From NCBI GenBank assembly GCA_043819135.1, contig JBDRFG010000172.1, positions 1 through 17,942 of the forward strand: a stretch of 17,942 nucleotides of DNA, in the 5' to 3' direction. The notes beneath the pieces were generated by a model. It was given only the letters and a program-made list of their open reading frames with translations, did not search any database and was not told the origin of the DNA. Both the position numbers and the translations under genes were made by a program. This stretch comes from Candidatus Eiseniibacteriota bacterium. GTDB lineage: Bacteria > Joyebacterota > Joyebacteria > Joyebacterales > Joyebacteraceae. Below, one piece after another: positions 1,393 through 17,711 of this stretch (position 1 is its first letter; every line of letters starts with the position of its first letter).

Positions 1393-1965
1393 TCATGAGG
1401 CTACGACAGGAGATAGACCGCGGAACTCCGCAAGCTGCTGCTTTGGATCCTCGATCTGGGCAATGGGCCGCAACGCCCGCTCGCTGATCGCGGGTCGCCC
1501 GACCCCCTCCGGCATAGCCAGAATGAGGTCCTGGATCTCAGGTGCGAGTCGCAGCAGGGCCATGACCTGCGTCACCCTGGCGCGGGTGATCCCCTCCCGT
1601 CGCGCGATCTCGGCCTGCGTATCCACTTCTCCGGCATCAAGCTGGCGTTGCCATTCCATGGCCATCTGGAGTAGTGCAACCACCCGAGGCGTCTTGGGCT
1701 TCTTCGGTGGCCTTGGCTTGCCCCGAGGCTCCGGTAGGGCACTCACGACCCGTTCAGCCGCCACCCTCCGCGTGAGGGTGCCCAGGTTGCCCTTCTTGAA
1801 CGCGCCCTTGGGTCCGAGCGTGACCTCGACGGTCTGATCGCAGTAGTTGACCACGGTCGCGCCGCCTGCGCTGTCTAGGGCGACGTGCCGGATGCGGAAC
1901 CAGACCTCTGTCTGGGCCGGACCCCGCCTGCGTCGAATACTGTTACATTTGGGGAGCCATCGCAC
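1393..1965 (-). CDS. HTH-domain ORF resembling the C-terminal region of large serine recombinases; begins at the tRNA-like att core (possible int(C) fragment)
   Basis: The segment WQRQLDAGEVDTQAEIARREGITRARVTQVMALLRLAPEIQDLIL is an HTH of the kind seen at serine recombinase C-termini and in their neighbouring genes. Codons W-L-P overlap the core TGGGGAGCCA (1950-1959). The only start is a GTG two codons earlier, inside a hairpin and without a clear RBS. Confidence 0.6.
   Translation of the reverse strand: MRWLPKCNSIRRRRGPAQTEVWFRIRHVALDSAGGATVVNYCDQTVEVTLGPKGAFKKGNLGTLTRRVAAERVVSALPEPRGKPRPPKKPKTPRVVALLQMAMEWQRQLDAGEVDTQAEIARREGITRARVTQVMALLRLAPEIQDLILAMPEGVGRPAISERALRPIAQIEDPKQQLAEFRGLSPVVAS
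1950..1959 (+). other. att-like core (att0): displaced tRNA 3' end TGGGGAGCCA
   Basis: The same 10-mer occurs at 12262-12271 within a longer tRNA 3' fragment. It ends in CCA and is followed by a terminator-like hairpin. Confidence 0.6.
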
Positions 1966-2006
1966 AGACGGCCCGCTCTGTCATGAGCGGGCCGTCTGTG
2001 TTTCTT
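1963..2006 (+). terminator. Rho-independent terminator-like hairpin after att0
   Basis: Perfect 16-bp stem CACAGACGGCCCGCTC / GAGCGGGCCGTCTGTG, loop TGTCAT, followed by TTTCTT. Confidence 0.7.
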
Positions 2007-2024
2007 ACGTTTGGTCCTCGCCTG

Positions 2025-2160
2025 TGGTCAGGTCAGGAGTACAACGAGGTGCGGCCACACAGCTCCCTGGGGTATCGGCCGCCGGCACCGGAGGCAGTGA
2101 TGCCGAGGCGCTCAACAGTGGCATCCTACCTCTAGAAGTGGTACAGCTACTGTGGCCACC
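2025..2160 (+). mobile_element. IS3-family remnant: transposase OrfB C-terminus plus degenerate right end
   Basis: 2034-2135 translates QEYNEVRPHSSLGYRPPAPEAVMP...*, the YN..RPHSSLGY.PP signature of IS3 OrfB. It is followed by AGTGGTACAGCTACTGTG, resembling an inner IRR. Confidence 0.8.
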
Positions 2161-2272
2161 CCGCTCCATTCGTGACTCGGCGGGGTCGAGGCTACCTGGA
2201 ACCGCATCACCTGACATACGCGGATGATGAGTGGGTGGCAGACGACCTCCATGTGCCCTATTCCCTTTGTGC

Positions 2273-2301
2273 TTGACGTAATGTGACCCCCGCGCTACTA
2301 T
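2273..2301 (+). promoter_or_regulatory. Candidate sigma70 promoter
   Basis: TTGACG - 17 nt - TACTAT. Confidence 0.55.
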
Positions 2302-2506
2302 TGTGGACAGTCCACGCGTTAGTAGAATCGCGTTTCAGATGGCTACTGATCACACGGGAGCCGCGTTGTTCCTTCTGCGGCTTGATCGTCGGCTCCACGT
2401 CGACTACTCCGATTTATCAAAGACGTGTGCCCTGATGGGCCTACAGGCGACGGTTCTTGGACCAGCCTTCGCTAGCCTCACCGTTCCGACGGGGGCTGGG
2501 GCTCAG

Positions 2507-2683
2507 GGGTTCTCTTCCGCGCCGATGCACTTCGGCGCGGGCGACTGGTACGCTTTCGTTGCGCTCGGCGACCTAGACGGCGACGGGGACGAGGATCTCG
2601 CCGTCGCGATCCTTGACGGGTTCCTTCACGACAGCCACGTCCTTGACATCAAGGGATGCAGCTGCCGGCTCAGGGACCTGTAA
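2507..2683 (+). pseudogene. Chimeric remnant: one FG-GAP/VCBS repeat joined to an IS21 IstB C-terminal fragment
   Basis: FGAGDWYAFVALGDLDGDGDEDLAVA is an FG-GAP-type repeat. GDEDLAVAILDGFLHDSHVLDIKGCSCRLRDL* is a decayed IstB terminus (consensus like GD..LA.AILDRLLHHSHV..I.G.SYRL). Confidence 0.7.
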
Positions 2684-17000: not shown

Positions 17001-17348
17001 GAGGACGAGCCGGCCATCCTTGACCTTTGCTCCGGCGCACTGAAAGAGCTAGGATACTCGGTGCTGGTTGCGGGGACGCCCGCTCAGGCTCTCGAGCTGG
17101 CGGGAGAACATCAGTCGCCGGTTCACCTCCTGTTGACGGACATCGTCATGCCTGAAATGAACGGGAGGGAGTTGGCGGAGCGCCTCGGGACTCGTTTCCC
17201 CGACATGAAGAAGCTGTACATGTCGGGGTACACGGCCGATATCCTCGCTGAGCGCGGTGTGCTTTGGGAAAACATCAACTTGCTTCAGAAGCCCTTCGAC
17301 ATGGGTCAAATGGCGTCAACGGTACGCAGAGTGCTCGACGGCCCGTAG
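14007..17348 (+). CDS. Membrane-bound hybrid sensor histidine kinase/response regulator (2 TM with Cache-like sensor, 3 PAS, HisKA, HATPase, REC; ~1113 aa)
   Basis: H-box [22 protein letters not shown], N-box [36 protein letters not shown]. REC domain VLLVEDE...[13 protein letters not shown]...MSGY...LQKPF. Start placed at ATG 14007 (GGGGAG upstream); ATG 14028 is an alternative. Confidence 0.9.
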   Translation: [1113 protein letters not shown]

Positions 17349-17438
17349 ACGTCCAACCGACATGCTTTTTCACGACTCACACAGGCCCGGTCTGCCATGA
17401 TTGGGTCTTCCGCGTTTCTGCCCATTTACCCCGGAACA

Positions 17439-17548
17439 TGATTTGGCCTGACCCTCTGGAGCTGATCCAGTCGGAGATTCAGACTCCGTCCGGATCTCGC
17501 AGGGGGTGTTCTATGGACAGGAAACGACACACACCTGAGCAGGCCGTG
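17439..17548 (+). mobile_element. IS3-family remnant: left end and first codons of orfA
   Basis: ATG 17513 gives MDRKRHTPEQAV, typical of IS3 (IS407-like) OrfA starts. The upstream IRL-like CTCTGGAGCTGATCCAGT matches the reverse complement of the IRR-like sequence near 2138-2155 at 12/18 positions. Confidence 0.6.
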
Positions 17549-17562
17549 GCTGGGGGTAGAAT

Positions 17563-17674
17563 CCAGGTCCGAGCGAGAAGCCGGAATCCGGTGTGCCCCT
17601 TTCGGCCCGACGAGCACCTCCAGCCCCACGCTGTCCCACAGAAGTACGCTCTGGGATACCAACTCGGGGAGCCA
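17563..17674. repeat. att-associated repeat copy 4 (112 bp, +1 insertion)
   Basis: Ends GGGGAGCCA. Minus strand reads WLPELVSQSVLLWDSVGLEVLVGPKG/(+1)HTGFRLLART, with TGG at the position of the TAG in the other copies. Confidence 0.9.
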
Positions 17675-17679
17675 GTGAT

Positions 17680-17711
17680 ACTGAGCCCGGTCCAGATGGA
17701 CCGGGCTCAGT
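17680..17711 (+). terminator. Hairpin following repeat copy 4
   Basis: Perfect 14-bp stem ACTGAGCCCGGTCC / GGACCGGGCTCAGT, loop AGAT. Confidence 0.55.

Follow-up and report, generated by a model that had tools for sequence, protein, structure and literature searches.

Gene arrays at tRNA-Asn appear to be bounded by attachment-site arms that encode severed tails of large serine recombinases

The contig JBDRFG010000172.1, from a Candidatus Eiseniibacteriota assembly (2.69 Mb, 92% complete), carries unrelated genes in tandem, each followed by a copy of a ∼111-bp repeat. We analysed the entire contig of 17,942 nt, hereafter called the window. Each repeat is the element-side (P) arm of an attachment site for a large serine recombinase (LSR), together with the last ∼35 codons of a split LSR gene. 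We propose that LSR islands enter the genome at tRNA-Asn and that the integrase-less units of the array have probably been mobilized in cis by such visiting islands. Labels beginning with G, L, C and P denote genomes, loci, contigs and proteins of our comparison set; G000 is this assembly and G000:C172 is the window.

The first-pass annotation of the window had described four co-oriented genes, each in its own unit (1960–6940, 6941–12393, 12394–13687 and 13688–17674) ended by the repeat, and this is what we see. The four copies, R1 to R4, end at 6940, 12393, 13687 (core GGAGTCA) and 17674, and are 68–79% identical over 111–112 nt. A profile built from them matches only these four places in the assembly (E ∼1e-30; next match E 0.24), all in one array and on one strand. 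The hairpins reported after the leftmost site, att0, and after copies 1, 2 and 4 were confirmed (z −4.9 to −8.6), and that after copy 3 is weak (z −2.0). The word GGAG[CT]CA occurs 663 times in the genome; a perfect stem of at least 12 pairs follows it nine times, four of them inside the window. The unit boundaries needed revision in one respect. There are six cores rather than five, the sixth, at 12243–12271, having a different short arm; it breaks unit 2 into one unit of 5331 bp and another, empty one of 122 bp. This site had been missed, as had a 29-residue LSR remnant inside unit 3 and the nature of the open reading frame (ORF) at 1393–1965, which is the tail of a second type of LSR.

On the minus strand, reading from the core gives a 188-residue ORF at att0 (the L tail) and 36-residue ORFs at R1 and R2 (the R tail); all begin with W-L. 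Among 20 longer homologues found, of which seven were inspected, six join the L tail in frame to full or partial LSRs (P0123–P0126, P0129 and P0132), and these LSRs represent at least three clades. Screening 113 candidates for LSRs with the R tail yielded one protein, P0141, which adds a second case to that of locus L115. At locus L115, an intact 567-residue LSR with Resolvase, Recombinase and Zn-ribbon domains, which the LSR on contig C107 of this genome also has, crosses the core and terminates in the R tail. The L115 site is symmetric, with CGCTCT 17 nt to the left and AGAGCG 17 nt to the right of the GG|AG centre. Right-arm stubs of L115 type follow R sites at L096, L112 and L122, and LSRs of the L115 clade (50–54% identical) adjoin tRNA-Asn at L129, L137 and L138. 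A terminal peptide of antisense-tRNA type, defined by a strict pattern, is present in 19 of 120 homologues of at least 480 residues.

Moreover, the R tails evolve as protein sequences. Over codons 10–32 of 21 copies, chosen as open and at least 55% alike, the ratio of non-synonymous to synonymous substitution rates (dN/dS) is 0.34 in the tail frame as against 0.76 and 1.71 in the other two frames, and 32 of 36 tails are open for at least 34 codons (R4 being counted, though frameshifted). Because the tails are fused to LSRs, because L115 holds the intact enzyme and because the tails evolve in a protein-like manner, we conclude that the repeat is the P arm of attP plus the severed end of the integrase gene. 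The proposal that the repeat is a displaced tRNA 3′ fragment does not survive, in that only the 7–9-nt core is tRNA-like.

Two further observations concern the recombinases of this genome: a second L tail, with an internal stop, lies on C50, and a third LSR (C12, ∼30080–31430, a 706-residue frame) has a different end and no tie to GGAGCCA. The closest relatives of the R-type LSR in the family (L171 and L174; G007:C310 and G013:C496) end at tRNA-Arg(CCT), which suggests target switching.

A repeat of this kind might instead be a miniature inverted-repeat transposable element, a repetitive extragenic palindrome-like element or a structured RNA, unrelated to site-specific recombination. Several contigs of this genome do carry sites, as do two distant places in G061 where no tRNA-Asn was found nearby. 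The four copies, however, sit in one array on one strand rather than being dispersed in both orientations with inverted repeats, and the repeat codes for an LSR C-terminus; this explanation is refuted by L115 and by the tRNA-linked arrays, and we find it hardly credible. A structured RNA or single-stranded DNA role was rejected on the absence of a stable fold (z 0.15 to 1.6 for the top strand of the four copies; −0.4 and 0.5 for the bottom strand of two) and of any Rfam family match in the window. The sites are also unlike integron attC, as had been claimed. Neither RYYYAAC nor GTTRRRY boxes were found in the four repeats plus 50 nt, and the window holds no IntI. Elsewhere in the genome, an IntI-like fragment lies at a contig edge (C126, 1–636; 256 bits against a cut-off of 265), and no link between it and the array was seen.

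The target named in the first-pass annotation was tRNA-Asn, with a serine recombinase nearby, and both were found. The sole tRNA-Asn called in the assembly, on C42, ends GAGGAGCCA and is directly adjoined by the 3′ end of an LSR on the opposite strand, whose frame reads into the tRNA. In G001:C70, a single contig carries an intact tRNA-Asn, a 35-residue LSR stub and then five more sites (R, R, R, S and T). The second array of our own genome, on C107, begins with a 3′ fragment resembling tRNA-Asn and continues with a full LSR, an island of 35 kb with a type I restriction system (recognized by its ORF sequences only), a tail with a helix-turn-helix (HTH) and two terminator-led one-gene units. 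Behind the 11 intact tRNA-Asn genes fetched from the family lie an LSR end in seven cases and a terminator-type arm in four. The arrays grow from tRNA-Asn. ARAGORN calls no tRNA in the window, which looks like the right end of an island with its trailing units; judged by matching frames and by relatives, C42 would be the left end of the same island.

Further tRNA-like sequences were seen. The fragment at G000:C107 93479–93503 (L007) acts as a second landing site in this genome; the possibility that the site at 93479 is an overlooked tRNA was rejected, relaxed ARAGORN searches giving only implausible intron models, and the sequence is instead the 3′ fragment of a tRNA. Behind one host gene, G000 and G003 have a tRNA-Asn-like 3′ fragment and G002 has a tRNA-Asp 3′ fragment, whereas G005 has none (L163, L164). 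In G064 (L128, L131, L133 and L135), several tRNA-Asn-like arms stand apart from all called tRNA genes, with R-type LSR ends behind two of them. An array in G015:C89 (∼3093–3167, L038) contains a decayed full-length tRNA-Asn copy and then an LSR end, and at G061:C1 2366484–2366530 a T-arm fragment of tRNA-Asn, inverted, adjoins an R arm, as though integration had run in reverse or used a symmetric site. This genome has more core-plus-hairpin sites, at C50 23140, C74 13389 and C98 884. It also has two slightly different transfer-messenger RNA (tmRNA) genes (C26 and C109) and two identical tRNA-Arg(TCT) genes (C26 and C88), a hint of strain mixture or duplication.

The geometry of the sites is that of a serine integrase. 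We typed 122 sites on contigs fetched around pattern matches, comprising 46 S, 40 R, 7 V, 6 L and 5 T arms and 18 arms of tRNA type. In 102 of the 104 P arms, an outer motif stands 17 nt away from the centre (offsets of 16–18 allowed), and in all 18 tRNA-type arms it stands 12 nt away; TTCGA, for example, has the 12-nt position in tRNA arms and the 17-nt position in arms of the S, L and LSR-A types. Excerpts of PMC3783163 describe a 5-bp shift of the outer motif between attP and attB of serine integrases, and by this match we read the two offsets as the attP/attB shift. The R type shows attP symmetry only, its motif having no match in the tRNA arm.

The arms on the other side of the core behave differently. 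All 13 right arms that lead into an A-type LSR have the motif at 17 nt, whereas hairpin arms have it at 17 nt in none of 71 cases and at 12 nt in one of 71; the remaining arms lack it at 17 nt (0 of 33). By eye, the hairpin arms resemble the terminators behind other tRNAs of this genome. Since they lack the P′ motif and resemble tRNA terminators, the hairpins look like host (B′) terminators, and we infer that the internal junctions are P-core-B′, of attR type. A hairpin comes next at 66 of the 104 P-arm junctions, and an LSR end at eight.

Related genomes hold arrays with different cargo and order, as had been anticipated, and the units have evidently been shuffled and exchanged between genera. 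We compared 79 junctions from 28 genomes or records, a set made up of R, S and T sites with enough flank and leaving aside V, L and tRNA sites and window site 12271. Among the 3081 pairs, 26 share the downstream side only, 20 the upstream side only and none both. Shared segments have 108 informative ends; 30 of them lie within the att zones of both partners, zones that make up 5.6% of the DNA, and 19 are no more than 15 nt from a core. Homology of the R3 region with G006:C162 and G015:C89 stops 1–2 nt beyond the R3 core, and the same cargo recurs beside other arms and left ends.

The four genes of the window differ in their distribution. Cargo 1 and cargo 2 have no DNA match in 30 relatives, cargo 4 has only partial matches (67–69%) in four of the 30, and cargo 3 is patchily present in six. 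The region of cargo 3 is 93–96% identical to that of genus g3, whose rpoB is only 77–78% identical; it has evidently moved recently between genera. Because cargo 1 and 2 are missing from the relatives, the genes do not form a fixed syntenic block. None of the three observations named beforehand as fatal to the first-pass annotation (a scattered repeat, no matching tRNA or a fixed block) was made.

We hypothesize that these arrays arise as follows. Several families of LSR islands would integrate at the tRNA-Asn 3′ end, with crossover at the GA of (G/A)GGAGCCA. Their attP would lie inside the LSR coding sequence, so that in the circle the gene continues through the core into the P-arm tail, and integration would part the two, a shortened LSR staying beside the tRNA while the tail ends up at the island's other end. 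If a deletion joined a unit headed by a terminator with the far end of an eroded island, an integrase-less unit of the form terminator-cargo-P arm would result. A visiting LSR island could excise from its attL to a more distant attR-like junction, carrying one or more units with it, and insert with them at the tRNA-Asn of a new host; if the island later left alone, a new unit would stand in first place. Canonical attP × attB and attL × attR reactions would suffice for the pattern. The earlier view of the units as strongly reduced islands fits some of them directly, namely those with LSR stubs or remnants, which mark erosion in G001:C70, in window unit 3 and at other loci of the family; most units are instead led by a terminator.

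Could single units move on their own, as in a true analogue of the integron? Each would then excise as a circle of P arm, core and hairpin and be inserted at tRNA-Asn by an LSR acting in trans, a scheme that the first-pass annotation had put forward and that needs a relaxed, CcrAB-like enzyme. The near-complete shuffling of neighbours agrees with it, as do units of equal length that recur in different settings (1036/1036 and 1923/1924 bp), a left end that is identical at the tRNA and internally (G019:C2 and G016:C11) and arrays that remain in G001, G010 and G016, where an LSR query gave no match. LSRs from SCCmec (SCC, staphylococcal cassette chromosome) with extra C-terminal strands recombine many site pairings, according to excerpts of PMC12286644, whereas phage-type LSRs do not recombine other pairings in the excerpts of PMC3783163. 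The hairpin arms, however, are terminator-like and have no outer motif (0/71 at 17 nt, 1/71 at 12 nt), and cargo occurs with different P arms. We consider autonomous circles unlikely, and hitch-hiking with visiting LSR islands appears the more likely route.

Several observations weigh against our proposal of cis-mobilization by visiting islands. C42, with its tRNA and LSR, and the window are separate contigs. The R-type LSR is not in this assembly, and its closest counterparts in the family (48–54%, partial) are at tRNA-Arg rather than tRNA-Asn; R arms, which differ in their outer motif, would have to serve an A-type LSR. The complete chromosome G061 has R sites at two distant places, and no tRNA-Asn was found near them (300 kb searched with two patterns, some stretches being masked). 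Two of the four tails in the window are broken, by a stop in R3 and a frameshift in R4, and purifying selection on the tails could date from autonomous ancestors. Of the shared-segment ends, 78 of 108 are not in the att zones of both partners. Among 1596 pairs of complete units, two match at both ends and 11 at one end only, some cases resulting from missed sites; the units are evidently remodelled inside and not atomic. One V junction, outside the counted types, is common to two genomes of one genus (G001:C75 and G007:C290), and one counted pair lies near the cut-off (144 against 150; kinase paralogues). Finally, contigs from four sequencing runs contained no joint at any att site, at a coverage too low to be telling.

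Much of this would be expected if the array were a graveyard, that is, the eroded record of successive autonomous islands, with immobile units and with cargo spread by insertion sequences and homologous recombination. The LSR stubs, the coiled-coil remnant and the insertion-sequence ends beside arms belong here too, with the broken tails in two of four window copies, the excess of one-ended over two-ended unit matches (11 to 2) and the many shared-segment ends away from att zones. Yet most units open with a terminator and not with an LSR stub (66/104 as against 8/104), 32 of 36 R tails are open for at least 34 codons, and shared segments of 86–93% identity end no more than 15 nt from the core in both partners 19 times. 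We regard an array of wholly immobile units as quite improbable.

Why should an attachment site sever the gene of its own recombinase? Predicted structures offer a clue. The R tail is modelled by AlphaFold2 as a β-hairpin of low confidence (predicted local distance difference test, pLDDT, ∼65). The HTH of the L tail superimposes on Spo0J (Z 9.1, root-mean-square deviation 2.7, 84 residues) and is of ParB/Noc type; Foldseek returned nothing for the L tail at E ≤0.001. A two-chain prediction of the L tail with the C42 LSR scores 0.76, as against 0.00 for the best control, and 116 of 157 solved pairs reach the score mark compared with two of 215 mismatched pairs. The runs agree in at least 79% of contacts, with partner pLDDT of at least 71. 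In the model, residues 21–28 of the L tail pair with the last strand of the C42 LSR (residues 305–313) and contact the coiled-coil base. A point against leaning on this result is that the predicted partners are halves of one split gene, and such halves tend to pass.

The tail probably completes an integration-competent enzyme. For SCCmec LSRs, excerpts of PMC12286644 point out that additional strands at the C-terminus could obstruct the place where the directionality factor sits. Because the predicted strand addition is at the zinc-ribbon domain beside the coiled coil, and given the SCCmec precedent, the tail, gained in the circle and lost on integration, may, speculatively, act as a direction switch. 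Taken further, several LSR families would share one cassette pool across phyla, and an intact tail would make a visiting shortened LSR whole as it circularizes with a cassette, so that the tail would be both the transport ticket of the cassette and the direction switch of the enzyme in a standing, integron-equivalent platform for gene capture. We offer this larger picture tentatively and hold it to be doubtful.

The remaining features of the window can be read from left to right. The 3′ part of a type III restriction endonuclease gene (3–1274, plus strand; PADLOC REase_III, E 1e-79) would be the far-end cargo of the LSR island that ends at att0, by analogy with the like layout on G000:C107. 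The L tail (1393–1959, minus strand) corresponds to the severed C-terminal ∼188 residues of an LSR, with β-strands and a ParB/Noc-type HTH; its frame opens W-L-P on the core of att0. This site (1931–1959, plus strand) has an L-type P arm with TCGAA 17 nt from its centre at 1954/1955, and a terminator-like hairpin, the B′-like arm, follows (1963–2000, plus strand; z −8.6). The leader of unit 1 (2076–2158) includes a short stretch common to C98 and C29, probably another mobile-element end.

From here on, all features but one are on the plus strand. Cargo 1 (2656–6567; true start probably near 2905) encodes a secreted protein with β-helix, metallophosphoesterase and FlgD-Ig/Por-tail regions. An insertion-sequence end (6759–6831), which we take to be IS3-like and which is shared with C98 and C50, adjoins R1 (6830–6940), whose minus strand holds an intact 36-codon tail and which has CGCTCT 17 nt from the centre; its hairpin lies at 6947–6978 (z −4.9). 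Cargo 2 (7131–12173), a secreted M6-family metalloprotease with β-helix and FlgD-Ig, is closed by the sixth site (12243–12271), where the core and a short P arm of S type, whose GTTCGAA lies 17 nt from the centre, form the true right end of unit 2. The empty unit (12272–12393) is nearly all R2 (12283–12393), with an intact 36-codon tail, and is followed by a hairpin (12400–12431; z −5.9). Directly behind this hairpin, inside unit 3 and on the minus strand, is the 29-codon remnant of an LSR coiled coil (12460–12546); it is 48% identical to residues 451–479 of the C107 LSR (E 9e-7, 367-bp subject) and is also present in G001:C70. Cargo 3 (12792–13502) encodes a spermidine-synthase-like methyltransferase and precedes R3 (13577–13687), a decayed R arm in which, owing to the core GGAGTCA, the tail opens with a stop codon. 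Cargo 4 (13860–17348), a PAS hybrid histidine kinase, precedes R4 (17563–17674), whose 1-nt insertion shifts the tail frame, and its hairpin (17680–17711; z −7.3).

The contig ends in the left end of a repeated element (17802–17942) that is identical to the end of C101 and probably caused the contig break. The ORF from 17892 is presumably the start of an IS110 transposase, and the element, which we take to be IS110-like, starts ∼90 nt past the R4 hairpin. In L105, too, an R site with its hairpin is followed by an IS110-like transposase. A preference for attC is a trait of some IS110 members, and by analogy this element may favour R/hairpin sites.

Scans of the window proteins found no intact recombinase in any unit, only remnants, in line with the original claim that the units lack an integrase. 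In the contigs fetched around pattern matches, 59 complete units have a median length of 2.5 kb. A rough codon-based caller assigns one gene to 43 of them, two to ten, more to four and none to two, and in the 57 with genes the main gene is forward in 38 and reverse in 19. The description of one-gene units thus holds for most, though they are neither strictly single-gene nor strictly co-oriented. Cargo (57 proteins scanned) consists chiefly of secreted FlgD-Ig proteins, kinases, TPR/CHAT proteins and hydrolases. Genes with long 117-bp tandem repeats adjoin R arms in G013:C88, G004:C4 and G013:C432.

At least one typed P arm is present in 20 of 31 family genomes. The R arm occurs in 9 of 30 family genomes and in none of 30 sampled outside the family, and the S/L pattern in 17 of 30 family genomes (40 matches including this genome, two for a reversed control). 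The exact R pattern also matches records labelled TA06, Krumholzibacteriia, Latescibacterota and Dehalococcoidia, as well as 14 metagenome stretches and one viral contig; the S-arm pattern gave no match in viral contigs.

Integrons, too, hold mostly one-gene units in arrays that grow at a single site, and their units are shuffled and exchanged. The arrays described here differ in having no attC fold or boxes and no adjacent IntI, in carrying genes in either orientation, and in the double-strand chemistry of serine recombinases. Each unit is headed by a terminator hairpin, and there are no co-oriented cassettes behind a shared promoter.

The ssrA islands of Dehalococcoides (McMurdie et al. 2011, PMC3146451, in excerpts) come close. 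They stand in tandem at the 3′ end of a stable RNA gene, with a CcrB-like LSR on the reverse strand at attL, and 15 of them lack the integration module and were proposed to be cis-mobilizable; the arrays described here share this layout of tandem LSR islands with module-less members. In the same excerpts, dsiB extends over attL/attP and its stop is unclear; the authors propose that the gene is complete in just two settings, the circle and a position behind a neighbouring island. Their target is the T loop of the tmRNA gene ssrA rather than the acceptor end of tRNA-Asn, and their six-gene dsi module is not evident among the long ORFs of the C107 island, for which no dedicated search was made. 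Compared with that account, the missing C-terminus, of 35 to 190 residues and from several families, is here located on the P arm, the units are mostly one-gene (median 2.5 kb) and terminator-led, and shuffling has been counted.

Cis-mobilizable elements (CIMEs), as excerpts of PMC5704250 describe them, have lost integration and transfer genes, keep their att sites, stand in tandem and travel with a neighbour. The window units likewise have no such genes beyond remnants, and tandem units at tRNA-Asn are seen. CIMEs keep attL and attR; here the units with LSR stubs have an attL-type left end, whereas most are terminator-led with an attR-like left end and so lie between two attR-like junctions. 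The composite example in those excerpts uses tyrosine integrases rather than LSRs, and transfer in cis has been demonstrated for CIMEs, whereas here we infer it. Composite and pseudo-SCC elements (excerpts of PMC7029136) are similarly LSR-made stacks with short direct repeats and ccr-less members; they differ in their rlmH/orfX target, which is not the one used here, their Ccr enzymes and their multi-gene elements, and a split recombinase gene is not described in those excerpts.

The closest parallel to the split gene is provided by the ‘suicidal’ integrases of Sulfolobus spindle-shaped virus (SSV) type (excerpts of PMC7253208), in which integration splits the integrase at its own attachment site and pieces of different origin are rejoined; the integrases of Mx8 and SSV also span attP (PMC4383910). 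Here too the att site lies within the integrase ORF, and the L tail on at least three LSR clades parallels the rejoining of unlike pieces. SSV and Mx8 integrases are tyrosine recombinases, whereas the enzymes here are of the serine family, with catalytic and DNA-binding domains whole and only the tail severed. Tycheposons of Prochlorococcus (excerpts of bioRxiv 10.1101/2020.12.28.424599) are cargo elements stacked at tRNA genes with partial tRNAs between them; they carry their own integrase, mostly tyrosine (an LSR in 27 of 937), and often replication genes, and tRNA-Asn is not among their seven targets. The Islander paper of 2014 stated that serine integrases were not known to target tRNA genes (PMC4383910), and the tycheposon preprint, in the excerpts, already lists some LSR elements at tRNAs.

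In the literature searched, which took in neither subscription journals nor supplements, we found no LSR cassette arrays at tRNA-Asn and no att-encoded LSR tails; supplementary tables of TIGER and LSR-mining studies may list such cases. Excerpts of PMC12884075, PMC11551731 and a 2026 preprint contain nothing on such arrays or tails. Tandem LSR islands, module-less islands, CIMEs, pseudo-SCC elements and suicidal tyrosine integrases are already known; what is added here is the cognate enzyme of the R arm, five arm families in one lineage, the shuffling counts, the transfer across genera and the B′-like hairpins.

Such arrays are overlooked by island finders that rely on a tyrosine integrase or an attC fold. 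The split gene is a direct handle on direction control in LSRs that have no known directionality factor, and LSRs that insert at the conserved end of tRNA-Asn while tolerating many right-hand arms could serve as integration tools. If the units are mobilized as we propose, uncultured lineages would gain a second integron-like route to secreted enzymes, kinases and sensors.

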